Made by a program: the position numbers and the translations under genes
Assembly: GCA_016291135.1 (NCBI GenBank)
Contig: JAEFAE010000003.1
Coordinates: 84,516-148,515, forward strand
Reading direction: 5' to 3'
Length of the DNA stretch: 64,000 bases
From: Bacteroidales bacterium
GTDB taxonomy: Bacteria > Bacteroidota > Bacteroidia > Bacteroidales > F082
Notes under the pieces: model-generated
Seen by the model: the letters and a program-made list of their open reading frames with translations, nothing else
The model's database searches: none
What the model was told of the DNA's origin: nothing
Part shown: positions 9,407 through 39,696 of the stretch, in pieces
Layout of the letters: every line of letters starts with the position of its first letter
Position numbering within the stretch: the first letter of the stretch is position 1

Positions 9407-9417
9407 TTATTGTTGTT

Positions 9418-10563: not shown

Positions 10564-10568
10564 TAGCT

Positions 10569-13561: not shown

Positions 13562-13565
13562 AACG

Positions 13566-14118: not shown

Positions 14119-15468
14119 ATGAAAAAGTTCTTCCTATTTGCAATGCTGCTGATGGCAACGGCTGCCATGAATGCAGCGACCACACCGAAAGCCATGCTCG
14201 ATGGGGATTCCACCTTCTACATCGAAATCGCGCCCCGCATTCCGCATGGAGTCGTCCTCACCGAACCGACGGAGTTCGCCATGGCCGGAGAGCGTGTATC
14301 TATTCTCGTCGATCCGGAAAACGGCTATCAGCTGCTGTGGGTCAGTGTGACCAAGCAGGGCGACCAGAGCCAGACCGTTCCGGTCAACAACATGGCCTTT
14401 ACGATGCCTCAGTTTAACGTCTATGTCGATGCGGCCTTTGGCGTGATTGGGAATGGTCCGGTCATCAATGGCCAGATTGCGGCCCCCGCGGCCATTTGTG
14501 CGGGAAGCGCCCTTGTCCTGACTCCGCCTGAGGTTACCGGTGCCACACAGACGCAGTGGCAAATCTCCTCGGACAAGAACTTCACCTCTTACGAGGTGTA
14601 TACCAACCAACCCCTCGGCCGCAGCTACAATGGGTGGAAGCTCCGTTTTATGGCTTCCAACAGCGCCGGTACGGTCTATAGCAACACGGTCACCATCACG
14701 GTCAACAACCTGGGTGACTTGAGCCTCACGGGTGACTTGAGTGCCTGTACCCGTCAGGAAAGCAACTATGCGGTTGCAGGTGCCAGCAACGTGACGTATT
14801 CTTGGGAAGTGACAGACGAAAACGCCACCATCGAGGGGACGGGCAAATCCGTCAAGATCCTGTGGGGTACTGCCGGACGCCAAGTGGTGACGGTCACCGT
14901 TGAGGATACCAAGATCGGTTGTAGCGAGACCCTCGAGATGCAGGTGGCCGTACAGTCGTTCATCAAGGATACCGACCTGAACAACATCGTGGCCAAGAAA
15001 CACGAAGGCAAGGAATACATCCTGATCTATCCCAACCCCAAGGATTCCCATTATCGCTACCAGTGGTTCAAGGACGGTGAACCGATCCAAGGTGCCACCG
15101 GTCAGTATTACTATCCGGAGCGCGGCTTGGAGGCGGGCGCCTACCAAGTCTATATCAGCTTCAATACCGACGACAACGGCAACCTGATTTGCGGTGCCTT
15201 CACTCCGGTGTTCAACCTGACTCCCGAGCGCTCGGCTTTCCAGATCCAACCCAACCCGTCGGAAACCGGCCAGGAGCTGATCCTTGAGGCCGACATCGAA
15301 GGGGAGGCCTTCTTCACGGTCTTCACCCTTGACGGCAGAATGGTCTTCCAACAGGCCGTTTCGGGTCAACAGCCCACCGTCCAGCTTAACCTGGCCAAGG
15401 GTCTCTATATCGGTCGTCTCAGCCAAGGGGACGCCTCCGAGCAAGTAGCCAAGATTGTCATTAGATAA
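14119..15468 (+). CDS. Secreted Ig-like repeat protein with a T9SS C-terminal sorting domain
   Basis: 449-aa ORF with a signal peptide (MKKFFLFAMLLMATAAMNAATT). The last ~75 aa (FQIQPNPSETGQELILEADIEGEAFFTVFTLDGRMVFQQAV...LAKGLYIGRLS...KIVIR) fit the Por/T9SS type A CTD pattern. Confidence 0.7.
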   Translation: MKKFFLFAMLLMATAAMNAATTPKAMLDGDSTFYIEIAPRIPHGVVLTEPTEFAMAGERVSILVDPENGYQLLWVSVTKQGDQSQTVPVNNMAFTMPQFNVYVDAAFGVIGNGPVINGQIAAPAAICAGSALVLTPPEVTGATQTQWQISSDKNFTSYEVYTNQPLGRSYNGWKLRFMASNSAGTVYSNTVTITVNNLGDLSLTGDLSACTRQESNYAVAGASNVTYSWEVTDENATIEGTGKSVKILWGTAGRQVVTVTVEDTKIGCSETLEMQVAVQSFIKDTDLNNIVAKKHEGKEYILIYPNPKDSHYRYQWFKDGEPIQGATGQYYYPERGLEAGAYQVYISFNTDDNGNLICGAFTPVFNLTPERSAFQIQPNPSETGQELILEADIEGEAFFTVFTLDGRMVFQQAVSGQQPTVQLNLAKGLYIGRLSQGDASEQVAKIVIR

Positions 15469-15511: not shown

Positions 15512-15826
15512 ATGGAAGATTTCTTTTTATTCTTGAGGTACAAGAACAAAACCATCAAGTTCAAAGTCACCGACCCCAACACGGATCTTGAAGTGCTGAT
15601 GACCAACCTTCGCAAGGCTGTTGACAACACGGGAACCCGTATCTTCGACCTGCCCGAGATGATCGACTATGTTCCTACCGAGTATTTCTTCGGCAAGAAG
15701 GACGAGACTACAGGCCGCGACATCATTTTGCAGCCCAAGATCGGCAAGACCAAGAAGACCTTGCTCGACTACAACGTCAAGCCGGGCGACACCCTCGAAA
15801 TCATCTCAGACCCCATCGCGGGTTAA
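15512..15826 (+). CDS. Ubiquitin-like (beta-grasp) protein ending in Gly-stop, copy 1
   Basis: 104-aa ORF ending ...GDTLEIISDPIAG followed directly by TAA. It lies immediately upstream of an E2-like gene and in the same operon as the E1, JAB and RING proteins. By my hand alignment it shares 61 of 104 identical residues with the equal-length paralog at 34097-34411. Confidence 0.7.
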   Translation: MEDFFLFLRYKNKTIKFKVTDPNTDLEVLMTNLRKAVDNTGTRIFDLPEMIDYVPTEYFFGKKDETTGRDIILQPKIGKTKKTLLDYNVKPGDTLEIISDPIAG

Positions 15827-15860: not shown

Positions 15861-16463
15861 ATGCAAATCATGGAATCAGCAAGGGAGATCGACCAGTACA
15901 AACAGAACCGCTATGTGGGACGGAACCGTCGTCTGATGCACGAATGGTCCGCCATCGACCAGCGTTTCAAGGACGATCCCGACATCAGCTACATCATCCG
16001 TAAACGCAATCCTGAGAACCTGCCCACCCAATATGAGATTGTCTTCAAGGTGAAGTCGTTCTGCAACATCGAGGAACCGGACGAGAACGGGCTCTGCAAG
16101 CCGGTGACGGCCGACGAGTTCCGCATGAAGATCACCATCCCGAACAACTATCCGGCGGTCGACAGCAAGCTGGAGTTCAAGTTCATCACCAAGGACGACC
16201 AGGGCAACGAGATCCCGCATCCTTGGCATCCCAACATCCGCTTCTACGGCGACTTTGCCGGTCGTGTGTGCCTCAACACGCCTGCCTGCGGTACCTTTAC
16301 CGACCTGGCATGGTATGTCGATCGCGTGATGTCTTATCTCAAATACGAGAAATACCACGCCTTGAACACGCCTCCCTTCCCGGAGGACAACAAAGTGGCC
16401 GAGTGGATCCTTGAACAGGCGGAACCCAACGGCTGGATTGAACAATTAAGAAACGAAAAATAA
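15861..16463 (+). CDS. UBC-fold E2-like ubiquitin-conjugating enzyme
   Basis: 200-aa ORF containing PWHPNIRFYGDFAGRVCLN. This is the HPN motif (16227-16235) followed by the candidate catalytic Cys (codon 16269-16271) at the spacing seen in eukaryotic E2s (HPN-x(n)-G-x-[IV]-C-L). Confidence 0.75.
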   Translation: MQIMESAREIDQYKQNRYVGRNRRLMHEWSAIDQRFKDDPDISYIIRKRNPENLPTQYEIVFKVKSFCNIEEPDENGLCKPVTADEFRMKITIPNNYPAVDSKLEFKFITKDDQGNEIPHPWHPNIRFYGDFAGRVCLNTPACGTFTDLAWYVDRVMSYLKYEKYHALNTPPFPEDNKVAEWILEQAEPNGWIEQLRNEK

Positions 16464-16470
16464 CAATGCC

Positions 16471-17649
16471 ATGAAAAAAATCGCTTTAATACTGATCGCT
16501 TTTCTGCTGCCTGCAATCGCATTTGCGCAGTATGAGGTAACCGTGTCCGACGAGGGCCCGACCGACTATACGCTTTCCATCCCGGGTTACAACGCCAAAA
16601 TCCCGGCAGCCACCATGCATATGCGGTTCGAATATGAACCCGAAACCGAAACGATCCTGATCCGCCTGGGCAGTGGCTCCGCTGCGCCCGACTACGACAA
16701 GATCTGGCTGCCTCAACATGAATTCACCTATAGCGAGATGGGTTCCTACATGAAGAACCGTGGGGTGAAGTTCAGAAAGGCAAGCACCCTGGTCGACCAG
16801 GAGAACTTCCTCAACCTTGAAAGCAGGACCATCGCCGCCTCCATCGATTGCCAAGGCATGACGTTCAACGGCAACTATGACCTGAAGTCCAAAAAGAGGG
16901 TGAAGAAGCAACTCGACTACCAGATGGTGCCGCTTGACGGAAAAATGGAACTGCAGCTCCGCTTCAAGGTGGCTCCGCGTACGAGCCTCATGAAGCTTAC
17001 GTTGCACAACCCCATGCCGATGAACCGTACCGGAAGCAAGGGGACGGTGGCATTTGTGGCCGATGACGTTACCATCAACATCAAGCTCGAACGTTGCGGA
17101 TCGGTGCAGGATCTGGTCCAAACCGCCCGCGAATATGAAGCCATGTTCCGTGTGGCCGAGGCTAAGATCGTGGATGAGCTGAAATACAGCCCCAATACCA
17201 AGAAGGCCTACCGTGACTTCTTCCTCAACATGATCGATGCCGTCGACATGGACCGTTTGGAGACGGCTTCCTGCGAAGAGGTGCGTGACAGCTATGACCA
17301 TATCCAGGACATGCTGAGCAAGATCAAGGGAGACAGCAAGCCCGATAACGGCGGAGGCGGAAAGGGAAACAGTGGAAACAGCGGCAACAGCGGCAACAGC
17401 GGCGCGGTCTCATGCGACGTGAACGCCCTCGATGCGGAAGTGAAATCCACCACCAGCAAGATCAACAACATCATCAACGAGTGGTCGTTGGCCGGCGATG
17501 CCGCTACCAAGAAGGAGAAAAAAGCGGCCTTCGACGCGGTGGTCAAGGCTTTTGATGCCAAGCTGAACAGCCTTCCTGCAGGTTGCAAGGACAAGCTCAA
17601 CGCCAAGCAGCTGAAAAAGTATGAACAAGCCAAGAAACTGATAAAATAA
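16471..17649 (+). CDS. Periplasmic or secreted protein, T6SS-module component of unknown function
   Basis: 392-aa ORF with a Sec signal peptide (MKKIALILIAFLLPAIAFAQ, no lipobox Cys). It has a Gly/Ser/Asn linker and a Lys-rich helical C-terminal domain. It is paralogous to 28931-30082; both share the C-terminal ...KK.AFD.VVK..DAK.N.L...C..KL....LK.YE.AKKLIK. Confidence 0.6.
   Translation: MKKIALILIAFLLPAIAFAQYEVTVSDEGPTDYTLSIPGYNAKIPAATMHMRFEYEPETETILIRLGSGSAAPDYDKIWLPQHEFTYSEMGSYMKNRGVKFRKASTLVDQENFLNLESRTIAASIDCQGMTFNGNYDLKSKKRVKKQLDYQMVPLDGKMELQLRFKVAPRTSLMKLTLHNPMPMNRTGSKGTVAFVADDVTINIKLERCGSVQDLVQTAREYEAMFRVAEAKIVDELKYSPNTKKAYRDFFLNMIDAVDMDRLETASCEEVRDSYDHIQDMLSKIKGDSKPDNGGGGKGNSGNSGNSGNSGAVSCDVNALDAEVKSTTSKINNIINEWSLAGDAATKKEKKAAFDAVVKAFDAKLNSLPAGCKDKLNAKQLKKYEQAKKLIK
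17365..17403 (+). repeat. In-frame 9-nt tandem repeat encoding (GNS)4G
   Basis: GGAAACAGT GGAAACAGC GGCAACAGC GGCAACAGC GGC, inside the linker of the 392-aa periplasmic protein. Confidence 0.85.
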
Positions 17650-17655
17650 TCTGTC

Positions 17656-18432
17656 ATGAACCGACTATTCCGTGGATGTTTTTTGCTGGCGCTGCTGATT
17701 CTGCTGGCTCCGGTACGGCTGTGGGCCCAGGATGAGGAGATGGCCGAATTCGTCAGGGGCGAACTGGACACCTATTATCGGGAGCTGGTCAAGCTCGACA
17801 AGCAGATTGTGACCGCCGAGGATGCGGAGCGGTATGAGACCCGCGTCAAGAACCATCTTAGACTGGTGGAATCGTGCTACAGCGACTACAGCGAAGTCAT
17901 CCGTTACGACAAGAAGCTCTACTCCTTATATGAGAAATACACCGACTATCACCAGGAACTGGAAAGAAGGATGGAATCCCTGAAGGAGGAGCAGGCGCGG
18001 CAAGAGAAATACGACAAGGTCAACACGAAGCTGAACCGTTACATGGTGACCCTTGCCGAGCTCGAAGAGGCCGGAAACCGTTGCGTCGCCAACAAACGCC
18101 TCGACTCGCTCAACATTATCAAGAAGCAGGCCGAGGAATGCTATGTGGACGAAGCCATGGTGGACTATGGCGCCAACCGCGACTTCATCGAAGAGGACGA
18201 GGACCTTGCCTTGTTGTGGAAAAAACTCAAGGAAACCTATGGGCGCATCTCAAACATGCAGATTGTCAAGACGTCGATTGACATGGTCACGATTCTTGAG
18301 ATCGTTGGCATTGTCGCAGCCGTTGTCCTCATCTTTACGATGATCTCCGGTAAGATCAAGGCGGCCAAGCTCACCAAACCGCAAAAAGAGAAGAAACCCA
18401 AGAAACAAGAAGAAGACATCCCTTCAATCTGA
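17656..18432 (+). CDS. Bitopic coiled-coil protein: signal peptide, periplasmic coiled coil, C-terminal TM and Lys-rich tail
   Basis: 258-aa ORF. N-terminal signal is MNRLFRGCFLLALLILLAPVRLWAQ. It has long heptad-like charged segments, the TM helix MVTILEIVGIVAAVVLIFTMISG, and the tail KIKAAKLTKPQKEKKPKKQEEDIPSI. Paralog at 34431-35189. Confidence 0.6.
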   Translation: MNRLFRGCFLLALLILLAPVRLWAQDEEMAEFVRGELDTYYRELVKLDKQIVTAEDAERYETRVKNHLRLVESCYSDYSEVIRYDKKLYSLYEKYTDYHQELERRMESLKEEQARQEKYDKVNTKLNRYMVTLAELEEAGNRCVANKRLDSLNIIKKQAEECYVDEAMVDYGANRDFIEEDEDLALLWKKLKETYGRISNMQIVKTSIDMVTILEIVGIVAAVVLIFTMISGKIKAAKLTKPQKEKKPKKQEEDIPSI

Positions 18433-18437
18433 GTATT

Positions 18438-20018
18438 ATGAAACGAAGAATCATTACCATACTAAGCCTGATTTTGGTGTGCTTCGCGGGTGTTATGGCC
18501 CAGCAGCCGACGGCCACTTTCGACGGCAACAAGCTGAGCATCGTGGTGCCCGAAGGGTATCTGGAGTTGGAGCGCAGCGCGATTGCCAATGCGGCGGTTC
18601 GTGACTGCATCAAATGGGAGGACGAAACCGCTTTCTTCATGTCGCAACCCGAACCTTACCTGCTTTATCCCGAGGGGCTCGCTGCCAACGAACCGCTGCA
18701 AATCGAAGGCAAGTTTAACGGTGAGCCGATCACCCTGCAGGTGGAGATGAAGGAACCCGCCCCGCAAAAGCCCGTCGATCCCGAAGGGGGAGATCCCTCC
18801 AAACGGAACCTGTTCCTGTATGGCGGACTGGGCCTGTTGGTGTTGGTGCTACTGACATTGGTGTTGCTCTTGCTGCGCAAGAAGAAAACCAACAAGGAAC
18901 CGGAGAAACCTTTCGATCCCAGCGTCATCTCGGTCATCACCGACGAATCGGTCCAATACGAACATGGGTTGAAACATGTCAAGGAGCATTTGGCGGACTA
19001 CCTCGTGTTCGACATGGACATGGTCTATGCCGACACGGCAGTCAACAAGGTGTATTTCAGCACCGCCCTCATCAAGAAGCTCTACGATTTCTTCAACAAC
19101 TCGCTGGAAACCGATGGACGCACCAACGAGACGGGCTGCTTCATCTTGGGTTGTTGGGATCGGGAGCCGGGCAATGCCGGCCGCTACGACATCAGCCTTG
19201 AGTACATGGTGGAGCCCGGCGATGACGCCGACTTTGGCGAATACAGCCTGAACTTCGGCAAGAAGATCAGCATCAACATGGCCTCGGTGATTGCCAACCT
19301 GGGCGAGAAGTCGAAACGCGACTATGTGCTCACCTGTTGGATGCACTCGCACCCCGGACTGGGGCTCTTCCTCTCGAACCAGGACCTCATCGTCCAGAAG
19401 CAGCTGACCTATTCCGATCACCGCAACCGCTTGTTGGCGCTCGTCATCGACACCAACACGCCCAAGCTGAAGCTGGGATTCTTCACGGCTCAAGCCCATG
19501 GCGAAATGAACAACAAGGAAGCGGTGAAGCGCTGGTTCTCCTTCGAGGAGATCAACCGTCAGGCCCGCGACATGAACCGAAACCATGCCCCCAAGGAAGA
19601 CCTGCTGTCGGAGTTTGTGGCCGATGCCGATTACTATACCCTCGACCTGAACGATTCCGAGCTTCCTCATCTCGGCCTGGCCGCCCATTGCATCAACCAG
19701 ATCGACAATGCCATCTATTCCTGCAACAAGGGAATTGTGGGTTACTTCTTCGGTGAGGAGGAGAACGGCTATCTCAAGGTGGGTTGCTGCCTGCCGTATG
19801 AGAACGAGGAACGGGTGGGTTGCCTGATCTACGGCGACGACCTCGATCGGGCCAAGTTGGTTGCCTATGCCTCGGACCTTGCCGGATGCCGGTTCTTCCT
19901 CAACTGCACCTCCGACGACAAGGCACACGTATGGTCTCGCAAGGGAGACGCTTTCGAGCCGGTTTGCGACACCACATTGACACAAATGAAAGAATGGATT
20001 AGAAGAAAACGCGTTTAA
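18438..20018 (+). CDS. Membrane-anchored JAB/MPN (JAMM) metallopeptidase, candidate deconjugating or processing enzyme
   Basis: 526-aa ORF with a signal peptide, ~130 aa periplasmic segment and the TM LFLYGGLGLLVLVLLTLVLLLL. The cytoplasmic domain has an upstream Glu (NETGCFILG) and an intact JAMM motif WMHSHPGLGLFLSNQD (H-x-H-x7-S-x2-D, 19344-19385). Confidence 0.75.
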   Translation: MKRRIITILSLILVCFAGVMAQQPTATFDGNKLSIVVPEGYLELERSAIANAAVRDCIKWEDETAFFMSQPEPYLLYPEGLAANEPLQIEGKFNGEPITLQVEMKEPAPQKPVDPEGGDPSKRNLFLYGGLGLLVLVLLTLVLLLLRKKKTNKEPEKPFDPSVISVITDESVQYEHGLKHVKEHLADYLVFDMDMVYADTAVNKVYFSTALIKKLYDFFNNSLETDGRTNETGCFILGCWDREPGNAGRYDISLEYMVEPGDDADFGEYSLNFGKKISINMASVIANLGEKSKRDYVLTCWMHSHPGLGLFLSNQDLIVQKQLTYSDHRNRLLALVIDTNTPKLKLGFFTAQAHGEMNNKEAVKRWFSFEEINRQARDMNRNHAPKEDLLSEFVADADYYTLDLNDSELPHLGLAAHCINQIDNAIYSCNKGIVGYFFGEEENGYLKVGCCLPYENEERVGCLIYGDDLDRAKLVAYASDLAGCRFFLNCTSDDKAHVWSRKGDAFEPVCDTTLTQMKEWIRRKRV

Positions 20019-20027
20019 TTGTTTGAT

Positions 20028-22379
20028 ATGAAACGACTGTCATTATTAACCCTATTACTCATATTTTTGTTCCAGTCCGCCAGGGCACAGGTGGGCATGG
20101 AATTCGGTCCTGTTGAATCCGACAACATGACCCGTTTCGTCGATTTCAAGATGATGAAAGACGGCAACAAAGTGCCTTATTTCGGCCTGACGGCCGACGA
20201 CTGCCGCTGTTTCGAGCTTGTGAACGGCGATACCGTGGTGCTGTATGTGGACAGCCTGGTGGACATCAGCAGCCGCAAGCTGGTCTCCAAGAACCTGACC
20301 ATCGTCATCCTGGCCGACCAGGGCATGATGCTCAGCGATGCCGACTACCTGAAACTGAAGGAAGCCATCGTGTCGTTTGTGGACGCCTTGCCGGAGTACG
20401 TCAAGGTATACATCGCCATGATGGGAACCGACGTCACCGAAACCGAGCGCGTCTATCCCGGCGAAAGCATCCGCTCGTACGTGCGTCGCGACGAGCTGGT
20501 GGAGCAGTCGGACGAGGAGAAGTCGATCTATGCCGCCATCATCTCCAAAATCCAGGAGATTGCCAACCTCGACGAGGACGACTGCTTCTACTCGGATGTG
20601 CCGCACAACCGTGAACTGACGGCCGATACGGAGTCGGACAAGATCCTCTTTGTGCTTTCGGGCGCGGTGGACGAGGATGAGGACGAGGATTTCTATCGCG
20701 ACAAGCTCCTCTTCAACAACCCCGACTATCTGGAGATCCCCGACCAGCTCAAGGCCATCTACTGCATCTATTTCGGCGATGAGCTGGAAGAGGACATGGC
20801 CAATGAGTTCAAGTTCATCTGCCATCGTACCCCCGAAGGCAAGTTCTATCCCCACTATGCGGTCGATTCGTTGAAATACATGCTGTTGGGTGCCATCGAC
20901 TCCATCGCCATGGACTACCGTATGTATTACACAGTGGGAGAGAAGGTGACCTATAACGGCCAACCCTTGGCCCTGTTCCTCGACATCGACCGCGCCAAGG
21001 CCCATGGCGAGAAGAACTATTCGTTCGGCTCCACGCTGGCCCCGATCACCCTGGCTCCTGCCGAGGCAGCTGGTGGCAAGGGCGGGTATTCCGTGCTGCT
21101 GTTCGGACTCCTGCTGGGCATCGCCTTCATCGCCTTGGCCTATCTGGTCATGCAGTATCTCGTGCCCTGGCTCCAATACCAGCTCTTCAAGAAGAAATAC
21201 GTCAAGAAGTTCAGCCCCAACGCCATCCAGAAAGATGGCAAGGATGTGGTGCTGCAACAGTGCTACTATTGCAAGGACGACTTCCAAGAAGGCGACATGA
21301 TCGTCACCAAATGCAAGCATACCGTCCACTGGGAGTGCTGGGAGGAAAACCATGACCGTTGCCCTGAATATGGCCTCAACAGTTGCAAGGAAGGCATCTA
21401 CTTCTATAATCGCAACCACCTGGCCGACCCGCGCAATTCGCCGTATTTCACCTCATGGCTGATCTACGGCCTGGCCGGCGGCCTCATATCCTGGCTGTTG
21501 TTCAAGCTGATACCCACCATCCCGTTCTTCGGAAAGCTGATCACTTGGATCGTCAGCCTGTTCCATGGGGAGAACACCCCGAACGTGGCCCCCGAGTTTG
21601 TCCAGAAGATTGCTCCTCTATTGATGTGCGGCCTGATCCTGGGCTTTGTGATCACTTTCCTGTTCAGCTTCCTGATCGATTTCCGCAGAAAGACCGCGAA
21701 GACCATCTTGCTCATGGTGGCTCGCGCCTTTGGCAACGCCATCATCGGTTTCCTCGCTTTCCTGCTGGGTGCGGTGGTCATCATCGCCTTGGGCAAGTCG
21801 AGCAACTGCTGGTGGATCGACTGGGTGCCGTGGCTCTTCTTTGGCTGTGCCATCCCGTGGCTGCTCTCGTTCAAGACCGACATCAAGTTCAAGGAAGCCT
21901 TCCTGGGTGGCTTGATCTCCGTGGTGTTGAGCTTTGTGGCCGTTTACGGACTGGGTTCCTCGGTGCCGGTGATGGGTTTGTTCGCCTTCATGATCTACGC
22001 GGCCGGTCTGGGTGCCTCGATCGCGGTGGTCCACTATACTTCGGAGAACTACTACCTCCATATCGAAGGCCCGACCAAGGAACGCGACATCGCCATCTAC
22101 AAATGGATGAACGTGGCGGGTGGATCCAACCATGTCACCATCGGCCGCTCGCCAAACTGTGTCATTGAGATGAACTGGGATCCGAGCGAAGAGATCCGCG
22201 ACAAGCAGGTGGAGCTGTACATCGACAACGACCATCCGTACTGCCGCGCCTTGACCGAAGGCACCACCTTCGGCAACGAGCAGCGGGTGCTCAAGGAGGG
22301 TGACTCGATCCTCTTGGTCCATGGCAGCTGTTTCACCGTGGGCAATACGAAATTCACTTATATTGAAAAAGATAAATAA
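20028..22379 (+). CDS. Polytopic membrane protein: periplasmic vWA-like domain, cytoplasmic RING-H2-like zinc finger, 6 further TM helices, C-terminal FHA-like domain (E3 candidate), copy 1
   Basis: 783 aa from the ATG at 20028; the track ORF begins at an upstream TTG. Signal peptide is MKRLSLLTLLLIFLFQSARAQ. The segment LTIVILADQG...KILFVLSGAVDED has a vWA-like pattern without a MIDAS motif. TM1 is YSVLLFGLLLGIAFIALAYLV. Eight metal ligands lie at 21261-21396: C-x2-C-x13-C-x-H-x2-H-x2-C-x7-C-x7-C (CYYCKDDFQEGDMIVTKCKHTVHWECWEENHDRCPEYGLNSC). About six more hydrophobic helices follow. The C-terminus VTIGRSPNCVIEM...LLVHGSCFTVGNTKFTY is FHA-like, with the GR present but no obvious S-x-x-H. Confidence 0.65.
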   Translation: MKRLSLLTLLLIFLFQSARAQVGMEFGPVESDNMTRFVDFKMMKDGNKVPYFGLTADDCRCFELVNGDTVVLYVDSLVDISSRKLVSKNLTIVILADQGMMLSDADYLKLKEAIVSFVDALPEYVKVYIAMMGTDVTETERVYPGESIRSYVRRDELVEQSDEEKSIYAAIISKIQEIANLDEDDCFYSDVPHNRELTADTESDKILFVLSGAVDEDEDEDFYRDKLLFNNPDYLEIPDQLKAIYCIYFGDELEEDMANEFKFICHRTPEGKFYPHYAVDSLKYMLLGAIDSIAMDYRMYYTVGEKVTYNGQPLALFLDIDRAKAHGEKNYSFGSTLAPITLAPAEAAGGKGGYSVLLFGLLLGIAFIALAYLVMQYLVPWLQYQLFKKKYVKKFSPNAIQKDGKDVVLQQCYYCKDDFQEGDMIVTKCKHTVHWECWEENHDRCPEYGLNSCKEGIYFYNRNHLADPRNSPYFTSWLIYGLAGGLISWLLFKLIPTIPFFGKLITWIVSLFHGENTPNVAPEFVQKIAPLLMCGLILGFVITFLFSFLIDFRRKTAKTILLMVARAFGNAIIGFLAFLLGAVVIIALGKSSNCWWIDWVPWLFFGCAIPWLLSFKTDIKFKEAFLGGLISVVLSFVAVYGLGSSVPVMGLFAFMIYAAGLGASIAVVHYTSENYYLHIEGPTKERDIAIYKWMNVAGGSNHVTIGRSPNCVIEMNWDPSEEIRDKQVELYIDNDHPYCRALTEGTTFGNEQRVLKEGDSILLVHGSCFTVGNTKFTYIEKDK

Positions 22380-22396: not shown

Positions 22397-23692
22397 ATGA
22401 AAAAGTTATTTCTTATCCTAACGATGACGGGCCTCGCCATGACGGCCATGGCCCAGTCCCAACTTTCGACGGTCCGTGGCAAGACCAAGGACGGAAAGAA
22501 CCTCAAGGTCCAGTACTACAAGGGGACGGTCGAAGACGTGATCCAGTCCGTCAGCTACGATTTGGTGGACGAACTTCAGGCCAAGTCCAACAAACTCCAG
22601 GCAGACCTGGATGCGGCCAAAAAGGAGATCAAGAACCTGCAGGCAAGCGGCGGTGGGGCAGACGCTAACGAGTTGAAGAACCTCCGCAAGAAGGTGAAAG
22701 ACTACGAGAAGGAGAATGCCACCCTGACCAAGCAAATCAAAGAATTGAAAAATCAACTGGGCGGAGACGTGGTTGAGCCGTCCTCCGACAACGACCAGGC
22801 CGTGGCCGAAGCCCAGCGTCAGGTCGCCGAAAAGGACAAGGCCATTGCCGAGCTCAATACCGTGTTGGATGCCTGCAATGCCAAGGTCAAGGACATGGAA
22901 CGGCAGATTGGCGAGCTGAAAGGCGCCGTCCGTCCGCCCGCGAGTCCGGTGATCGGCGCCACCTTCGGGATGGGGCCTGCCTTCATCGGCAAGAGCACGC
23001 CGGACTATTGGGCCAAAAACGTGAAGCCGGCCATCTTGTTCGAGGTCTATTACGGCACGGGCAACCTGACCCCGAGCTTCCCGCTTTCGGTGGAGGCTGG
23101 ATTGGGCTTCCGCAACTTCAAGATGTCCGCTACATTGCCTGAATACACCACCGTCATCACGGGTGACGACAACGACGGCGATCCCTTCAAGGCCCACTAC
23201 AGCTTCAACAACCTGGAGGAGCGCTTGGGATTGACCTACCTTGACATTCCGGTGCGTGTGTGTGTGTCGCAACCCCTCAAGGACCGTGTCACGGTCTATG
23301 CCAAGGCGGGCTTGACCCCCTCCATCAAGGTGGGATCCAACTTCAACGGCAGCGGCACCTACAGCCTGTTCGGTTATTATCCGCAATGGGATGTCAACCT
23401 TCAGGACATTGAACCCCTTGGCTTTGGAGAGGACCTCGAGTGCTACGACGGTTTTACGCCTGAAGTGAAGTCCTTCGTCCTTTGGGGCAACCTCGCCTTT
23501 GGGGCCTACGTGCCGTTCAATGGCAGCCCCATCGAGCTGAATGCCGGCGTGAAGTTCGACTTCCCGTTGACTTCGTTCGGAACCGCCGCTACGGGCGACT
23601 TCATCCCGGGTACCCATGCCGCGGTGCTCGGCAACGGAGGCAAGGCCACCATTATGAGTCTGCAACTCGGCGTCGTTTACAACTTGAAATAA
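22397..23692 (+). CDS. Outer-membrane beta-barrel protein with an N-terminal periplasmic coiled coil
   Basis: 431-aa ORF with a signal peptide (MKKLFLILTMTGLAMTAMAQ). About 150 aa are coiled coil (KLQADLDAAKKEIKNLQ...KQIKELKNQL...). The C-terminal half has alternating-hydrophobic strands, including the LTYLDIPVRV motif typical of small Bacteroidota porin-family barrels. Confidence 0.55.
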   Translation: MKKLFLILTMTGLAMTAMAQSQLSTVRGKTKDGKNLKVQYYKGTVEDVIQSVSYDLVDELQAKSNKLQADLDAAKKEIKNLQASGGGADANELKNLRKKVKDYEKENATLTKQIKELKNQLGGDVVEPSSDNDQAVAEAQRQVAEKDKAIAELNTVLDACNAKVKDMERQIGELKGAVRPPASPVIGATFGMGPAFIGKSTPDYWAKNVKPAILFEVYYGTGNLTPSFPLSVEAGLGFRNFKMSATLPEYTTVITGDDNDGDPFKAHYSFNNLEERLGLTYLDIPVRVCVSQPLKDRVTVYAKAGLTPSIKVGSNFNGSGTYSLFGYYPQWDVNLQDIEPLGFGEDLECYDGFTPEVKSFVLWGNLAFGAYVPFNGSPIELNAGVKFDFPLTSFGTAATGDFIPGTHAAVLGNGGKATIMSLQLGVVYNLK

Positions 23693-23700: not shown

Positions 23701-24909
23701 ATGGAAGAAATCGAAATCAAAGAATGGGGTAAAGAAGTGTTCGACCTCTTGTCGTGGTACAAGATGGACGTGGTCAAGAACGCCAAGGTGATGGTGGTCG
23801 GTGCCGGTGCGCTCGGCAACGAGGTGTTGAAGAACCTCGCCCTGTTTGGCGTAGGCAACATCTATATCGTGGACTTCGACACCATCGAATACACCAACTT
23901 GACCCGTTCGGTGCTCTTCCGCGAGGAGGATGCCGACAAGGGCTATTTCAAGTCGGAGGTGGCTGCCCGGAAGTTGCGTGAGATCAACCCCAACATCAAT
24001 GTGCAGTATATCTGCGGCAAGCTCAACACCGATGTGGGCTTGGGACTCTACCGGAAGATGGACGTGGTGGTCGGCTGTCTCGACAGCCGGCTGGCCCGTC
24101 TCCAGCTGAACCGGCTCTGCATGCGTGCCGACATCCCTTGGGTGGAGGGCGGCATGGAGAACCTCACCGGCAACGTCAGGGTCTTCAAACCCGGAGAGAA
24201 CTGCTACGAATGCGGCTTGACCGAAAACGCCAAGCAGAACATCTTCCAGCAGCTCTCCTGCGCTGGAGTAGCCCACCGCAACGAGAACGTGGGGCGTATT
24301 CCCACCACGCCGGTCATCGCCTCGATCATCGGCGCCGTTGAGACCCAGGAGGCCATGAAGCTTCTCCACAAGGAGGAGGTGCAGTCGGGCGTGTTCTCGA
24401 CCCTCATGGGCAAATGGTTCCACTATGAGGGCATGCACAACCACATCTCGGTGTATGACTCCCAAGCCTACTTTGAGGACTGTCCCTCGCACGAGTGCTG
24501 GAACGACGTGGTCAAGATCGCTGCCTTGAGCGCCGATACCCGGATCAACGATGTGTTCACCCTGATCCAGGAGACCCTGGGCGTGAAGGAAGTGGAGATC
24601 AACCTCCGCAACGACAAGTTTGTCGACATCATCGTTTCCAAGAACGACAACCAGCGTTTCACGCCCATGTTGCCCGAGTCCAAGATCTCGGACTACATCG
24701 ACTCGAACTACGACCTCTATACCCGTTCCCGTTCCGACCTTAACCAAAACGCCTACGAGAACATCAACGAGGAGTTCCCGTACCAGCGGCTCACCCTCCA
24801 CGAAATCGGCATCCCCTATTACGACGTCATCGAAGTGACCACCGAAAACGGGGTGTTCCATGTGGAGCTTACAGCGGATGAGGCACGTTTCCCGATCATT
24901 GTCAAATAA
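23701..24909 (+). CDS. ThiF/MoeB-family E1-like activating enzyme with a C-terminal extension
   Basis: 402 aa from the ATG at 23701. The track ORF 23482-24909 overlaps the upstream gene in another frame and is over-extended. Motifs: nucleotide loop VVGAGALGNE; DFDTIEYTNLTRS (arginine-finger region); NCYEC; and a crossover-loop Cys in QQLSCAGVA (codon 24259-24261), analogous to TCVEAGV of MoeB. About 130 aa lie beyond the adenylation domain and could be a UFD-like domain. Confidence 0.75.
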   Translation: MEEIEIKEWGKEVFDLLSWYKMDVVKNAKVMVVGAGALGNEVLKNLALFGVGNIYIVDFDTIEYTNLTRSVLFREEDADKGYFKSEVAARKLREINPNINVQYICGKLNTDVGLGLYRKMDVVVGCLDSRLARLQLNRLCMRADIPWVEGGMENLTGNVRVFKPGENCYECGLTENAKQNIFQQLSCAGVAHRNENVGRIPTTPVIASIIGAVETQEAMKLLHKEEVQSGVFSTLMGKWFHYEGMHNHISVYDSQAYFEDCPSHECWNDVVKIAALSADTRINDVFTLIQETLGVKEVEINLRNDKFVDIIVSKNDNQRFTPMLPESKISDYIDSNYDLYTRSRSDLNQNAYENINEEFPYQRLTLHEIGIPYYDVIEVTTENGVFHVELTADEARFPIIVK

Positions 24910-24917: not shown

Positions 24918-25691
24918 ATGTCTTATTTTGACCAAAACAGCCTTCAACAAGAGCTTTGCGCCGAACAGGTGCTTGCGGTGCATTTCCCCGACATCAAGGA
25001 GTGGACGGCCAACTATGGCAGCTTCTTCTCGAGGAACTACACGGGCGACTTGAAGGAATGTAACCCCAGGGATAAAAAGGTTTCCCTCTCCCGGAACGGC
25101 ATCTACGACATCCTTCCCGAGAAGATGTTCTTCGACCCTAACGAGTTGCGGAACAAGGAAAGCCGGGCCTTTGCACAACGGGTGGCCGAACTCTATGAGG
25201 AGGAAAGGAACATCCAGAAATATTTCCAGCCTTTCGACTCTTATTTCTTTAACCGGTCGCTAAACATCCGCTTGAATGTCAATAGGTTGGTGGACGATAA
25301 GGTCGAGATGATGCTCCGGCTGCTTTTCGACTACGACCTTCATGCGGAGAAGAATCCCTATATCCGCCTGCTGGCGCCTATGTTGCTTCAAGTAACCGAG
25401 TTGCGGTCCGACTTCGACCGGCTGTCGACGATGCTCGCCGCTATCATCGATTGTCGCGTGGACTACAAGATGCCGACCCAGGACCGTGTGCTCTTTACGG
25501 TGCATAAGTTGCAACTGAACAGCCGTGAGTACGCCGATTTCATGTTGCTGTTGAAGCCGTTGTTCGACTTTGTACAAGAGTGGTTCGTCCCCATGGAGAT
25601 GGACTGCGGCTATCAGGTGAAAGACTATCAGCAGCCTTTCGTGCTTTCCGACGATCGGGCTTTGGTATTGGACTACAACACACAGATTTGA
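24918..25691 (+). CDS. Conserved T6SS-module protein, positional candidate for TssG
   Basis: 257-aa ORF paralogous to 37547-38329 (HFPDIKEWTANYGSFFSRNYTGD... versus HYPFQREWIAHHKGIFTRNYADD...). It directly precedes the TssK-like, TssE and TssF genes in both modules. No other TssG candidate is present, and I recognise no TssG motif. Confidence 0.35.
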   Translation: MSYFDQNSLQQELCAEQVLAVHFPDIKEWTANYGSFFSRNYTGDLKECNPRDKKVSLSRNGIYDILPEKMFFDPNELRNKESRAFAQRVAELYEEERNIQKYFQPFDSYFFNRSLNIRLNVNRLVDDKVEMMLRLLFDYDLHAEKNPYIRLLAPMLLQVTELRSDFDRLSTMLAAIIDCRVDYKMPTQDRVLFTVHKLQLNSREYADFMLLLKPLFDFVQEWFVPMEMDCGYQVKDYQQPFVLSDDRALVLDYNTQI

Positions 25692-25715: not shown

Positions 25716-26603
25716 ATGAATACAGATATCAGAATTGATTGGCGGTCGGGCATGGAGATCACTCCACAGACCTTTATCGACATGGAGAACAACATTTCAG
25801 AGAACCGCTTGCTGGTTCGCAAGATGATTGCCGCCAAGTCGTTCGGCGTCATCCCCAGAACGAAGTTCTCCATCAGCCATGAGCTGCTTAACGGAAGTCT
25901 GGTCCTCAAGCAGATCACCTGCGACGTGTTGCTGCCTGCCGGTCAGGTGGCCGTGGTGGAGACCAAGGCGCCCATCACCCTGGCCATCCCCGACAAGGAA
26001 GCCGATGAGCTCTACCTCACCCTAGAGGTGGGCGACCATCTCGTCACCTTTGAACGGGACGGCGTGCCGCATGTGGTCAACGAATACAAGTTCGACTTCA
26101 AGGCGCTTCCCGATGTGAGGACCCAGCAGCCGTTGCTCAAACTGGTCCGTGCCAACGAGGCTTGGACTGTTTATGAGAACTATGTCCCTCCGGTCATGAC
26201 GGTCAGGACTTCCGTGCCGTTGCTTGAGAAGCTCGACGCCTTGAAGCAATCGGCCGACAAGATCGTTACCCACGAACATGCCGACCTGATGGAAGACCCG
26301 GTGCTGGTGATGTTGCTCATCGACCAGCTGATGACCTTCTCGGCCGACGACTCCTCACGTGAGTTGGTGCTGCTGTGCAAGCGTATCGCCACGGCCTTGA
26401 GCTATGCCGTCATGAAACACAAGGTGGAGTTGCCCGCACCCAATATCATGGATGTGGAACCGTATCTGAATGCGTTCCAGCATTTTTTGGCCGACATCGC
26501 CGTCGCCATGAACGACCTGCAACCCAAGGTAGTGGAAGTGAAGGCCCCGGAACCCGAACCGGAACCGGAACCCGAACCGGATGAGTGGCTCCCGATGATT
26601 TAA
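25716..26603 (+). CDS. tssK: Short TssK-like baseplate protein with an acidic (PE)n tail
   Basis: 295-aa ORF. The N-terminus IRIDWRSGMEITPQTFIDMENNISENRLLVRKM resembles the TssK start (V.WsEGmfL.PQHFQQ.drY...). It is about 150 aa shorter than canonical TssK and ends EVKAPEPEPEPEPEPDEWLPMI. Confidence 0.5.
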   Translation: MNTDIRIDWRSGMEITPQTFIDMENNISENRLLVRKMIAAKSFGVIPRTKFSISHELLNGSLVLKQITCDVLLPAGQVAVVETKAPITLAIPDKEADELYLTLEVGDHLVTFERDGVPHVVNEYKFDFKALPDVRTQQPLLKLVRANEAWTVYENYVPPVMTVRTSVPLLEKLDALKQSADKIVTHEHADLMEDPVLVMLLIDQLMTFSADDSSRELVLLCKRIATALSYAVMKHKVELPAPNIMDVEPYLNAFQHFLADIAVAMNDLQPKVVEVKAPEPEPEPEPEPDEWLPMI

Positions 26604-26622: not shown

Positions 26623-27102
26623 ATGTTCATCAGAAACCCTTTGCAACTGCGTTATCCCATTGTGGATCTAGACGGTAGCCAACTGAAAGGCTCTATCGAC
26701 GCCTTCTTGCGCCTGCTGATCGCCTCCAACAAGTACGACAGCATCGCCGATCAGGAGTTCGGATTCTGTCTGGAGGACTTCCGTTTCGAAGGCTTCAGTT
26801 CGGAACGGGCTGAGTTTTTGGAGCGGAAGACCGTGCCGCGAGACCGGTCGGAGAATACCGAATTGGCTGAGATCCGCAGTCCGTTGTATTCCAAAAGACT
26901 CGTCGGAAACAGCAAAAACGCCGACACGTTTGCCCGTGAATTGAAAAAGAGCATCGAGCGTTATGAACGAAGGCTCCGCGAGGTACAGGTGAACACGGAC
27001 TTCCAGAAAAACGGCCGGATCCTCCACATCATCGTGACCGGGAAGATCAACAATGCCGCCAATACCCTTTATTTTAACGAGTTTAATGTTGATGTTTGGT
27101 AA
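26623..27102 (+). CDS. tssE: Baseplate wedge protein TssE (gp25-like), copy 1
   Basis: 159-aa ORF directly upstream of tssF. It has a gp25/GPW-like start (LKGSIDAFLRLLIASNKYDSIADQEFGFCLEDFRFE). Paralog at 39230-39691. Confidence 0.6.
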   Translation: MFIRNPLQLRYPIVDLDGSQLKGSIDAFLRLLIASNKYDSIADQEFGFCLEDFRFEGFSSERAEFLERKTVPRDRSENTELAEIRSPLYSKRLVGNSKNADTFARELKKSIERYERRLREVQVNTDFQKNGRILHIIVTGKINNAANTLYFNEFNVDVW

Positions 27103-27117: not shown

Positions 27118-28872
27118 ATGACACAAGAAGATTACGATATTCAGGTACAGGTGGACAGCCTGATGCAGAAAGTCCTGGAGACCTGGAAACGCGAAGGGAA
27201 ATGGGACGGCAGCAACCCCAATTCGCCCTTTTACGGTTTCGAGAAAGACCCCTTGCTCCGTATCCTGATCACCGCCTTCGTATATCAGACCAATGGCCTG
27301 AAGGCCGATATCCAGAACTTGGAACGGGACGTGGTGAGCGATTTCCAAAACAGTATTCTGCCGTACCAGATCACCCAGGCCATTCCGGCCATGACCTTGA
27401 TCCAGACGGCCAAGAGCCCCGATGAGCCCGGCGACGTGTATTGCGACGAAACGACCGCCTTCCTGGTAAAGAAAGAATCGCTCCGCGTCAAGGAAGTGTT
27501 TCCTTTCCATCCGCTCTTTAAAGCCAAGATCATCGGGATGACCGTGAATGGTGTCACCAAGATTGCCAGCGACAAATGGAACGTCAACATCGACGTCGCC
27601 GACCAAAGCGCCGACCTCTCGAATTTCGGTTTCCTGATTACCGGCCTGCGCTACAGCAACGTGAATGTTTATTGGAACAACGAGAAGCTGCCCCTGATCC
27701 AACCCTGGGAGTTCGACCGCTTCCCCAAGATGGCCTGGTTCAACGACGCCAACATCGTCTTCAACAAGTCGATGCTCTTTGGCGGTGAAAGCAAATGGTA
27801 TGACCTCTGGGCCCAGATGAATGTGAACTACTACATGGTGGCTCCGACCTTCCGTCGTCCGATCGACTCCGATATGATCAATTTCGTGTTCGAGTTCTCG
27901 GGGATGTCGAAACCCTTCAATTTCGAAGCGGAAAACCTGGCCTTCAACTGCTTCCCGGCCGTCAACGTGCTGAAAAAAGACTTCCAGCTCTCCGGAGCGG
28001 AACCCATCGTCAAACTGACCAATGAAACGGATTACACCGATGAGGATGCCGAGCCGGTCAAAGGGGTCCGTTCTTCCGTGGATGAGAACAACCACGAAGA
28101 CTTCTTTATGAACCTGGTCATGAATCCGAATTCCTCGATCGACGACCTGGATCGCTTTAGCATCCGTCATTTCGGCTGCGAGCGGTTCAATCTGAATGCC
28201 TTGGTACGTCTGGCCAACGATCTCAGCTTGCGCTACGAGTCGGATTTCTACGCCTTCCAGAAGGTGCACAAGATGCAGAACACCGACAAGATCCGTCGTC
28301 TCAACATCGTACTGAAGGATGTGTTGGGGGTGATCCTGAACAACAAGGAGCCGCGTTCCGGCGTATATGCCATCCTGAAACATGGCAAGGGGGAGGGTAA
28401 TCCTGCGCCGATCCATCTCTCCGGTCTGTTCACCGACGGTGCCTACGCCAACGACATCGATGTGTTCAGCGACGTTTCGGGACCCAAGTGCTTCGACAAG
28501 AAGGAAACCAAGATGCTGTACAAGACCTTTGGCGGACGCGATGAGGTGGTCGATCGGGAGGAGAAGGCCATGTTGGCCAAGTACTATGCCCGTACCAACG
28601 ACCGTATCGTGACACGTGCCGACCTAAAGGCCTTCTGCAACCGTTATTTTGTCCAAATCGGTTATGCGGACGCCTTGCTCGACGTGAACAGTGTCATCGA
28701 ACGCCAAGAGGACGGCTTGTCCCGTCAGCACATCACCGTCCAGCTGAAAAACGAATTCGTGCGTGACCGCGAAGACGTGCCCATGATTGTCGACCGCTTG
28801 CGCAAACTGGTCGAGGTGCATAGCATGACCCACCTGCCGATCGTGGTGGATTACCTGGCGGTTGTGAGTTAA
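27118..28872 (+). CDS. tssF: Baseplate protein TssF, copy 1
   Basis: 584-aa ORF. The N-terminal KDPLLRILITAFVYQTNGLKADIQNLERDVVSDFQNSILPYQITQAIPAMTLIQ follows the TssF pattern (dP.v..LlE.fAyL...l...ld...p.....ll..l.P.yl.P.PS). Its size and its position after tssE also fit. Confidence 0.7.
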   Translation: MTQEDYDIQVQVDSLMQKVLETWKREGKWDGSNPNSPFYGFEKDPLLRILITAFVYQTNGLKADIQNLERDVVSDFQNSILPYQITQAIPAMTLIQTAKSPDEPGDVYCDETTAFLVKKESLRVKEVFPFHPLFKAKIIGMTVNGVTKIASDKWNVNIDVADQSADLSNFGFLITGLRYSNVNVYWNNEKLPLIQPWEFDRFPKMAWFNDANIVFNKSMLFGGESKWYDLWAQMNVNYYMVAPTFRRPIDSDMINFVFEFSGMSKPFNFEAENLAFNCFPAVNVLKKDFQLSGAEPIVKLTNETDYTDEDAEPVKGVRSSVDENNHEDFFMNLVMNPNSSIDDLDRFSIRHFGCERFNLNALVRLANDLSLRYESDFYAFQKVHKMQNTDKIRRLNIVLKDVLGVILNNKEPRSGVYAILKHGKGEGNPAPIHLSGLFTDGAYANDIDVFSDVSGPKCFDKKETKMLYKTFGGRDEVVDREEKAMLAKYYARTNDRIVTRADLKAFCNRYFVQIGYADALLDVNSVIERQEDGLSRQHITVQLKNEFVRDREDVPMIVDRLRKLVEVHSMTHLPIVVDYLAVVS

Positions 28873-34411: not shown

Positions 34412-34430
34412 TCCTTAACTCGATACAGCC

Positions 34431-35189: not shown

Positions 35190-35204
35190 AAGAAAGGATT
35201 GCGC

Positions 35205-39219: not shown

Positions 39220-39229
39220 TTGAAAAGCC

Positions 39230-39691: not shown

Positions 39692-39696
39692 ACAGC

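Follow-up and report, generated by a model that had tools for sequence, protein, structure and literature searches.

What does a membrane protein with a RING-like finger do among the genes of a bacterial type VI secretion system (T6SS)? The question is raised by a 64,000-nucleotide stretch of Bacteroidales DNA (assembly GCA_016291135.1, contig JAEFAE010000003.1, positions 84,516 to 148,515), referred to here as the window, which carries on its + strand, from about 300 to 42,200, a locus of the T6SSiii lineage. The baseplate genes of this locus are interleaved with genes for a ubiquitin-like protein (Ubl), E1-like and E2-like enzymes and a JAMM/JAB peptidase, and among them lies a gene, accompanied by a paralog, whose predicted product has seven transmembrane (TM) helices and a Cys/His finger. 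We consider it probable, at roughly 0.6, that this product is a polytopic inner-membrane E3-like hub of a Bacteroidales T6SSiii variant with a built-in Ubl conjugation cascade.

The gene is contained in an open reading frame at 20019..22379 that opens with TTG. Its homologues begin with MKR at the position of ATG 20028, and the upstream gene stops at 20018, so that this ATG is likely the true start and the protein is 783 residues long. Residue numbers given below are counted from TTG 20019, and those based on the ATG are lower by 3. The paralog, in the open reading frame 35199..37547 (+ strand, ATG at 35205), is 33% identical along the full length (expectation value, E, 4e-133), and the two share one architecture: a signal peptide, a vWA module, the first TM helix (TM1), the finger, six further TM helices and a domain of the FHA fold. 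Pfam scores of the single sequences for these domains are all sub-threshold yet coherent, and an NCBIfam scan gave no match for the target protein. A full-length AlphaFold2 model was built from 35 sequences and has a mean pLDDT of 80.

The finger is related to RING-H2 ligases

The eight putative zinc ligands of the target protein are arranged as C415-x2-C418-x13-C432-x-H434-x2-H437-x2-C440-x7-C448-x7-C456, with x6 before the last Cys in the paralog. This is the pattern that a first-pass annotation of the DNA had reported for both proteins, and it lies where that annotation placed it, with the codon for C415 starting at 21261 (Table 1 gives the paralog's finger). An alignment of 35 close and distant homologues has all eight ligands intact in 33; one of the two exceptions has Asp at ligand 2 and the other is without ligands 1, 2, 5 and 6. 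Every fully conserved Cys and His residue of the protein is among the eight, the nearest others (C597 and C714) being in other domains. A relaxed RING regular expression matched none of 20,000 shuffles of the target protein.

A wider sample of 189 full-length family representatives gives the same picture, with 161 reading CCCHHCCC. Asp at ligand 2 is seen in four representatives (CDCHHCCC), and one more combines it with Asn at ligand 4 (CDCNHCCC); three appear as CCCHHCCN, although their sequence reads CPEH and thus has a canonical C-x2-H last pair. The other 20 belong to a single clade and read D-T-C-(Q/H)-x-T-C-C, such that ligands 1, 2, 5 and 6 are jointly lost and ligand 4 is often lost, whereas ligands 3, 7 and 8 are retained together with extra Cys in a CPNYPDC...C tail. 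In a cross-brace, one zinc site is made by ligands 1, 2, 5 and 6 and the other by ligands 3, 4, 7 and 8. The joint loss in this clade is therefore what a cross-brace would be expected to give, and a tandem arrangement of ligands 1-4 and 5-8 would not yield it.

Sequence comparisons point to RING-H2 proteins in particular. Pfam zf-RING_2 matches the target at E 3.6e-4 (21.2 bits, gathering threshold 27.3), and the paralog's best Pfam match is Prok-RING_1 (PF14446) at E 8e-5 (22.9 bits, threshold 29.1). When a finger-only profile of 40 diverse family members was searched against all PDB sequences, the top matches were exclusively RING-H2 E3 ligases (E 1.5e-4 to 1e-2), led by RCHY1/Pirh2 (1.5e-4) and ZNRF1 (2.9e-4) and followed by ARK2C/RNF165, Arkadia, RNF126, synoviolin/Hrd1, EL5, ZNRF3, RNF13, RNF24 and AMFR. 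By these profile matches the homology of the finger to RING-H2 is established, and the description of the Cys/His cluster as RING-H2-like is borne out. The cross-brace fold is supported indirectly, by the pattern of ligand loss; zinc binding, E3 activity and the targets of the finger are inferred.

The positions through which a RING finger contacts its E2 are also kept. Position 417, two residues after ligand 1, is Y, L, F, W, I or V, and hydrophobic or aromatic in nearly all members; W441, the counterpart of the canonical helix Trp, is invariant (181/181); and P449, following ligand 7, is found in 143 of the 161 eight-ligand representatives. The clade without zinc site I keeps all three of these positions, and its apparent retention of the E2 surface recalls the transition from RING to U-box.

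Topology and terminal domains

The protein begins with a classical, cleavable signal peptide of the AXA type. Hydropathy and the AlphaFold2 model place TM1 at about 356-380, within a long model helix of 356-394, and the remaining TM helices at 478-497, 531-553, 560-591, 603-617, 624-644 and 652-671; the second model helix after the finger extends over 502-553. Lys and Arg are enriched after TM1 (QYQLFKKKYVKKF), TM3 (DFRRKT) and TM5 (FKTDIK) and not in the alternate loops, so by the positive-inside rule the vWA module is periplasmic and both the finger and the FHA-like domain cytoplasmic. The E1, E2 and Ubl proteins have neither a signal peptide nor a TM segment, and if the finger is their partner it must therefore be cytoplasmic. 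All of this agrees with the topology originally proposed, with seven TM helices, the N-terminus out and the C-terminus in, and the finger following TM1 on the cytoplasmic side.

In the model, the N-terminal part consists of a beta-sandwich (25-82), an alpha/beta domain (93-294) and a second beta-sandwich (300-345). Foldseek against the PDB assigns the alpha/beta domain to the vWA fold (TMt about 0.6, E 1e-4 to 1e-6), with matches to vWF A1/A3, integrin I domains, ITIH1 and archaeal ArnB. The VWA_3 Pfam match of the single sequence is at 0.05, and a full-length profile gave weak matches in the PDB, including integrin. The fold and the topology together uphold the earlier suggestion of a periplasmic, vWA-like N-terminal domain.

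The C-terminal domain (678-783) is modeled as all-beta, and Foldseek against the PDB finds the FHA domains of DgcB, GarA, MDC1 and ArnA (TMt 0.65-0.81, rmsd 2.1-3.3 Å). A profile of this domain matches the DgcB FHA domain at 5.8e-6 and Ki-67 at 7e-3, followed by Rad53, Dun1 and CHFR, and the single sequence matches the FHA Pfam model at E 4.6e-3; the domain had been called FHA-like from the sequence, and structure and profile comparisons concur. Within the family it has its own invariant features, namely K695-W696, W720, G775 and a C-terminal YIEKDK.

A Ubl cascade within a T6SS locus

The genes surrounding the target gene encode what appears to be a complete Ubl cascade (Table 1). Members of the Ubl family are 97-111 residues long and end in ...DP[IFV][AP]G-stop, and some relatives (in loci L015, L019 and L021) end instead in ...AGG plus 2-3 residues, as do precursors that need trimming. 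A Ubl profile searched against the PDB matches mainly ubiquitin, together with a few ubiquitin-like proteins, and its terminal Gly is aligned to G76. The JAMM peptidase has a signal peptide, about 100 periplasmic residues, a TM helix at 127-145 and a cytoplasmic domain with HxHx7SxxD, and the window copy matched no Pfam, NCBIfam or PADLOC model. The E1 of the window matches the CBASS E1-E2 models of PADLOC; with PADLOC and PHROGs no match was obtained for the RING, E2, JAB or Ubl proteins.

Intergenic gaps of 9-18 nt around the target suggest that its gene cluster is co-transcribed. Part of the cluster is present twice, and the paralog pairs have comparable identities: 59% for Ubl, 25% for a protein with a signal peptide and a TM segment (SP/TM protein), 33% for the RING protein, 33% for a 257/260-residue protein, and 32%, 40% and 37% for TssK, TssE and TssF. 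This similar divergence indicates that the block was duplicated as a unit, whereas E1, E2 and JAB are single copy in the window. The locus further has two VgrG and two PAAR-like genes, and three Hcp-type genes by the listing in Table 1, four by another count. The gene for the 260-residue protein is the one gene that separates the RING gene from its TssK-like gene in the second set (module B), and in the first (module A) the genes for an outer-membrane protein (OMP), E1 and the 257-residue protein intervene. No open reading frame of the window matched TssN, TssO, TssP, TssQ or TssR in Pfam or NCBIfam, libraries that include models for TssN, TssO and TssR.

The family is large, with a HMMER search returning 491 clusters (50% identity) at E <= 1e-3 and at least 308 at E <= 1e-30, nearly all of them full-length at about 780-820 residues; every named member encountered is annotated as a hypothetical protein. 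A genome scan yielded 32 loci, all of which, except for one weak match, come from metagenome-assembled genomes of Bacteroidales (rumen, gut, 'Ca. Limimorpha', Prevotella). The order PKD-Ubl-E2-..-JAB-RING-OMP-E1-x-TssK-TssE-TssF is found by tblastn in about 25 of the 32, down to about 40% identity, and rearranged loci at 28-30% identity still contain E1, Ubl, E2 and TssK/E/F. Loci of other clades, retrieved by exact look-up, repeat the linkage to both the cascade and the T6SS. In related loci long enough to judge, Ubl, E1 and E2 are always neighbors of the RING gene and JAB usually is. Ubl, E2 and E1 are better conserved across loci than the structural genes, as illustrated by locus L001, where identities are about 95% for Ubl, 88% for E2 and 89% for E1, compared with 76% for the RING protein and 59% for JAB. 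In every related locus examined that is long enough, the RING gene is embedded among Ubl, E2, E1, TssK/E/F and, usually, JAB genes.

One compact locus, L026, is informative as to the role of the protein. Its order is TssB-TssC-Hcp-Hcp-VgrG-PAAR-Ubl-E2-two envelope proteins-RING protein-E1-x-TssK-TssE-TssF, and the RING protein is the sole polytopic membrane protein encoded there, for which reason it is likely to be the membrane anchor of the machine. The protein had at first been described as a membrane-integral adaptor; that it is membrane-integral holds, but its role is probably wider than that of an adaptor.

The clade that has lost zinc site I (clade 1; loci L033, L043 and L045, from metagenome and MAG contigs) has a degenerate, U-box-like finger, DPxT…C.Q…TW…CPNYPDC…C.GAG, and is encoded in E1-YukD-E2-..-JAB-[RING-family protein] cassettes in which the Ubl counterpart is named YukD by Pfam. 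In L043 the cassette directly precedes genes for TssC, Hcp, VgrG, a PAAR-AHH toxin and the toxin's immunity protein. In L033, on a contig that resembles a plasmid, its neighbors are an ion channel and TerB, and the surrounding 10 kb is free of T6SS genes. Loss of zinc ligands is not correlated with loss of the E1 and E2 neighbors, as the clade 1 loci keep the cascade.

A proposed mechanism and its alternatives

These observations suggest a scheme in which the finger would bind two zinc ions in a cross-brace and dock the thioester-linked E2~Ubl of the locus through residue 417, W441 and P449, thereby promoting transfer of Ubl onto a lysine residue in some protein located where membrane and baseplate meet. 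The modified protein could be the RING protein itself, the 257/260-residue protein, the TssK-like protein or another component, and the membrane-tethered JAMM peptidase would undo the modification. The FHA-like domain, having lost its phosphothreonine (pThr) pocket and gained KW and WD motifs, may dock a non-phosphorylated partner, either the baseplate or Ubl/E2, and the periplasmic vWA module may touch envelope partners such as the OMP, the signal-peptide/TM proteins or the PKD protein. The whole would form a writer/reader/eraser switch for T6SS assembly or firing, in which, by analogy with PpkA-Fha1-PppA, a RING E3 would stand in for the kinase and a deubiquitinase (DUB) for the phosphatase.

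A bolder version is possible though doubtful. Ubl conjugation might replace both the phosphorylation switch and the beta-grasp docking provided by TssN, with the RING E3 anchor tagging itself or a baseplate subunit with the free YukD/ubiquitin-like protein and so making the docking site on which baseplate assembly and firing would depend, the JAMM peptidase stripping Ubl to reset or disassemble the machine, and each duplicated set serving as a separately addressable firing module that shares E1, E2 and DUB.

Several points weigh against an E3-like hub, and most concern the finger. Both Pfam RING scores are under the gathering threshold; the last ligand pair is C-x6/7-C and not C-x2-C; and W441 adjoins ligand 6, such that the HMM needs a gap of three residues to reach the canonical Trp. 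The finger is a small beta-hairpin-plus-helix unit in the full-length AlphaFold2 model, but modeled on its own it has a pLDDT of 68, and the Foldseek matches of this finger-only model are not significant (E >= 0.14, TM 0.4-0.5), although the list is almost all RINGs (RNF126, RNF24, COP1, TRIM32, Rbx1, RNF165, RNF38, Arkadia, Pirh2 and RNF8). The AlphaFold modeling that the first-pass annotation had proposed for the finger and both terminal domains thus recovered the vWA and FHA folds and left the RING matches below significance. Clade 1, which keeps the cascade, weakens a strict requirement for zinc, yet fits a U-box-like ligase. Beyond the finger, the MIDAS motif D-x-S-x-S of the vWA module is degenerate in both window copies (D100-Q-G-M-M, that is DQGMM, and DRAAT) and intact in several other family clades, which weakens a metal-dependent ligand-sensing role; conjugation in the Bil and Bub pathways needs no RING E3, which shows that an E3 can be dispensed with (PMC10557695, PMC11601596); and the likely role as a membrane anchor is read from gene content.

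The same points could be taken to mean that the Cys/His cluster is simply a structural or oligomerization zinc module, that the E2 conjugates Ubl without an E3, and that the membrane protein serves as target or scaffold and not as a ligase. The non-canonical spacing of the last ligand and the shifted Trp, the sub-threshold Pfam scores and the non-significant structure match would all suit such a module, as would the retention of E1, E2, Ubl and JAB neighbors by a whole clade without zinc site I, and the invariant cytoplasmic K695 and K687 could be acceptor sites. We nonetheless regard this explanation as rather unlikely, given that the finger's only significant matches by sequence are to genuine RING-H2 E3s, that the three E2-contact positions are kept despite ligand loss, as in U-boxes, and that the protein strictly co-occurs with E2.

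Less likely still, and in our judgment improbable, is that the FHA-like domain continues to read pThr made by a Hanks-type kinase encoded elsewhere, the protein being mainly TagH/Fha1-like and the Ubl system secondary. The FHA fold is genuine, FHA proteins control T6SSi assembly (PMC3953482, PMC13584744), and G-[RK] and the His of SxxH are kept in some clades. Alignment nevertheless indicates that, while the fold is real, the pThr pocket is not conserved. The window protein has R710, R727, Q730 and E747 at the pocket positions. Across the family G709 is invariant and position 710 is K, R or S, so the G-R dipeptide pointed out earlier is present in the target (G709, R710) and fails as a family feature. 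At position 727, which corresponds to the Ser of SxxH, A, R, Q or E predominate; at position 730, that of the His, 107 of 189 representatives have Q and 57 have H; and at position 747, that of the Asn of NG, 106 of 189 have D or E. This bears out, for the target, the earlier remark that S-x-x-H and N-G motifs could not be found. Alignment to the DgcB FHA domain further shows three extra residues, with an invariant W720-D721, in the S-x-x-H loop, an insertion that remodels the phosphopeptide loop. A scan of nearly all long open reading frames of the window gave no Pkinase or PP2C match, in keeping with the earlier remark that the window has no Ser/Thr kinase or phosphatase, and none was noted among the called genes of the related loci that were fetched.

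Finally, the E1/Ubl/E2/JAB/RING genes might form a self-standing conflict or defense system that merely lies in or near T6SS islands and has no part in secretion, but this is very improbable even with the plasmid-like setting of L033, the antiphage function of known bacterial Ubl systems (Bil, CBASS Cap2) and the CBASS match of the E1, because the genes are interleaved with baseplate genes in an order conserved across deeply diverged loci, Ubl, the RING protein and baseplate genes are duplicated as one block, the RING protein, E2, JAB and Ubl are without PADLOC match, and even the divergent clade 1 adjoins TssC, Hcp, VgrG and PAAR-toxin genes in L043.

Comparison with known systems

Prokaryotic RINGs encoded beside E1, E2, JAB and Ubl genes ('tri-ligase' operons) were reportedly predicted by Burroughs, Iyer and Aravind in 2011, and their prediction reportedly included TM-bearing bacterial forms. 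A later review describes prokaryotic RINGs with a longer insert between the last ligand pair, as well as bacterial RINGs that lack two ligand pairs and keep the central-hairpin and C-terminal pairs (PMC11354881). Both traits recur in the family described here, in the long insert of the last pair and in the loss of two pairs, which is exactly the pattern of clade 1. The operons of Prok-RING_1 (PF14446) are similar in that a RING is found in a TM-bearing bacterial protein beside Ubl, E1, E2 and JAB, but the present family has a full eight-ligand RING-H2 and a sub-threshold PF14446 score, and its cassette is interwoven and duplicated with T6SS baseplate and membrane genes. With prior art judged from Pfam model names, the Pfam description and the paraphrase in the review, we regard the prokaryotic RING/E1/E2/JAB operons as known. 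What is new is a polytopic protein whose RING-H2 finger has all eight ligands, whose ends are vWA and FHA domains, and which is built into a T6SS baseplate/membrane module and duplicated with it; no description of this integration was found.

Among eukaryotic proteins, Hrd1/synoviolin, gp78/AMFR, RNF13/RNF24 (PA-TM-RING) and ZNRF3 likewise have a cytosolic C3H2C3 finger on membrane spans with a lumenal or extracellular domain opposite, and such TM RING-H2 E3s rank near the top when the finger profile is searched against PDB sequences. The target differs from them in being bacterial, in its vWA and FHA ends, in having its finger between TM1 and TM2 and its last ligand pair 6-7 apart, and in a modifier that is a 104-residue Ubl ending in AG.

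Within type VI secretion the closest analogy, which is not one of homology, is with PpkA/TagE, Fha1/TagH and PppA. PpkA of T6SSi has a periplasmic vWA domain (PMC3224232), so that both systems have a T6SS-linked membrane protein combining a periplasmic vWA domain with a cytoplasmic 'writer', and both have an FHA module and a locus-encoded 'eraser' enzyme. In the present system, however, a RING takes the place of the kinase as writer and a JAMM peptidase that of PP2C as eraser, the FHA domain is without its pThr residues, and the modules are on one polytopic protein.

The canonical T6SSiii apparatus offers a second comparison. TssN of Bacteroides fragilis is a polytopic inner-membrane protein encoded beside tssK, with five TM helices and an EccD/YukD-like ubiquitin fold, a beta-grasp by which it docks TssK and so the baseplate (Bongiovanni et al. 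2024, PMC10781749), and TssR of the same apparatus has a periplasmic vWA domain (PMC10781749). The window locus belongs to the same lineage as TssNQOPR by its TssC and TssD Pfam families, but the target has seven TM helices and not five and an FHA fold in place of the beta-grasp, which is here a free Ubl. We considered the target as a TssN homologue and rejected this on account of its FHA rather than beta-grasp C-terminus, its different helix count and the lack of any TssN-type match in Pfam or NCBIfam. As the ubiquitin-like fold is built into TssN and the Ubl here is free, one may speculate that it is attached post-translationally to create or gate TssK docking.

The bacterial Bil and Bub systems encode Ubl, E1, E2 and a JAB-type peptidase together, as does the window, but they are soluble, antiphage or without assigned role, and lack a RING E3 (PMC10557695, PMC11601596); the PADLOC models also miss the E2, Ubl, JAB and RING proteins of the window. 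The top Foldseek matches of the full model are the archaeal ArnA/ArnB proteins (PDB 8s05, 5a8i), in which the trio of zinc finger and FHA domain (ArnA) and vWA-plus-beta-sandwich (ArnB) is also found, although these are soluble, divided between two polypeptides and concerned with phosphorylation-regulated archaellum expression, and their zinc finger is not a RING. Literature searches found no paper linking such a Ubl cascade to type VI secretion. The word ubiquitin is absent from an August 2026 review of T6SS accessory factors, and a 2024 preprint on bacterial ubiquitin-like proteins (the Bub operon family) makes no mention of RING, membranes or secretion.

If the finger is an active E3, the protein would be a RING ligase native to bacteria and embedded in the membrane, served by an E1, E2, Ubl and DUB of its own, and not an effector directed at a eukaryotic host. 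An E3-like hub would then represent a new class of post-translational control, or of assembly chemistry, for contractile injection systems, would explain how many T6SS loci of gut and rumen Bacteroidales could work without a recognizable TssNOPQR membrane complex, and would provide a prokaryotic model for polytopic RING-H2 ligases. Because one of its clades keeps the E2 surface despite the loss of zinc site I, the family may also serve as a model for the RING-to-U-box transition. Should Ubl conjugation indeed replace phosphorylation and TssN docking, the locus would offer the first example of a secretion machine that bacteria build or gate by Ubl tagging of their own, and its RING protein would parallel in bacteria the polytopic RING-H2 ligases of eukaryotes, Hrd1 among them.

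Layout of the locus and additional observations

Table 1. Positions in the window of the target gene, its predicted domains and the neighboring genes of the T6SS locus.
Feature	Position	Strand	Evidence
Target, vWA-TM-RING-6TM-FHA protein	20028..22379	+	Pfam, homologue starts, AlphaFold2 model, Foldseek
Signal peptide, predicted cleavage between MKRLSLLTLLLIFLFQSARA and Q, AXA motif	20028..20087	+	sequence reading and hydropathy
vWA-fold core, residues 93-294, predicted periplasmic	20295..20900	+	Foldseek, secondary structure, MIDAS table
TM1, then basic stretch QYQLFKKKYVKKF on the cytoplasmic side	21084..21158	+	hydropathy, model, charge
RING-H2-like finger, C415 C418 C432 H434 H437 C440 C448 C456	21261..21386	+	
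Six more TM helices, residues 478-671	21450..22031	+	hydropathy, model, charge
FHA-fold domain, predicted cytoplasmic, without canonical pThr-binding residues	22044..22376	+	
Paralog of the same architecture; finger 36432..36554	35205..37547	+	33% identity
Ubl1, 104 aa, ends ...DPIAG-stop	15512..15826	+	
Ubl2, 104 aa, ends ...DPIAG-stop	34097..34411	+	59% identical to Ubl1
E2-like protein, HPN at residue 123, then GRVCLN catalytic-Cys context	15861..16463	+	UQ_con matches on counterparts
JAMM/JAB peptidase, membrane-tethered, HSHPGLGLFLSNQD at residue 303	18438..20018	+	JAB Pfam matches on counterparts
E1-like adenylating enzyme	23701..24909	+	ThiF E 2e-53
ClpV	296..2791	+	
TssC	3427..4797	+	PF17541 E 3e-102
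Three Hcp-type genes, the last a fusion	4857..5249, 5329..5817, 30142..31302	+	
Two VgrG	5845..8229, 31327..33627	+	
Two DUF4280/PAAR-like	8243..9406, 33654..34034	+	
PKD protein with T9SS sorting domain	14119..15468	+	
Two envelope proteins	16471..18432	+	
258-aa protein, signal peptide and C-terminal TM; paralog 34431..35189	17656..18432	+	
Outer-membrane beta-barrel with N-terminal coiled coil, between RING gene and E1	22397..23692	+	
257-aa protein without Pfam or PDB relative	24918..25691	+	
TssK-like, block 1	25716..26603	+	
TssE (gp25), block 1	26623..27102	+	
TssF-like, block 1	27118..28872	+	
Second set: Ubl2, 252-aa SP/TM protein, paralog, 260-aa protein, TssK-like, TssE-like, TssF-like	34097..41340	+	
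Baseplate block 2: 260-aa protein, TssK-like, TssE-like, TssF-like	37547..41340	+	

Several of the neighboring genes deserve comment in their own right. The conserved protein of about 257 residues (24918..25691 and 37547..38329) is cytoplasmic, and its gene always directly precedes that of the short TssK-like protein. Its C-terminus carries an invariant LDYN motif, neither Pfam nor the PDB contains a relative, and it is a candidate for the partner of the FHA-like domain or for a diverged baseplate subunit. Both TssK-like proteins (25716..26603 and 38326..39219) are short, at about 296 residues rather than about 430, and match the N-terminal part of the model only (positions 2-200 and 2-259 of 429), which suggests that the TssK C-terminal head domain is missing or separately encoded. 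The beta-barrel protein with its long coiled coil keeps its position in most of the related loci, and it may form the part of the apparatus that lies in the outer membrane. The PKD/T9SS protein is conserved directly upstream of the Ubl gene; we note that TssP of canonical T6SSiii likewise has PKD-like domains.

The products of 16471..17649 (392 residues) and 28931..30082 (383 residues) are paralogs (28% identity, E 1e-41), and a 'TssG' label for the latter is doubtful. The last Hcp gene encodes an Hcp domain with a C-terminal extension of about 250 residues, and the first PAAR-like DUF4280 protein has an N-terminal extension of 280 residues; these are possible specialized effectors or adaptors. 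Between this PAAR-like gene and the PKD gene, at 9364..14054, there are four open reading frames without family match, partly conserved in related loci, which are candidate effector and immunity genes.

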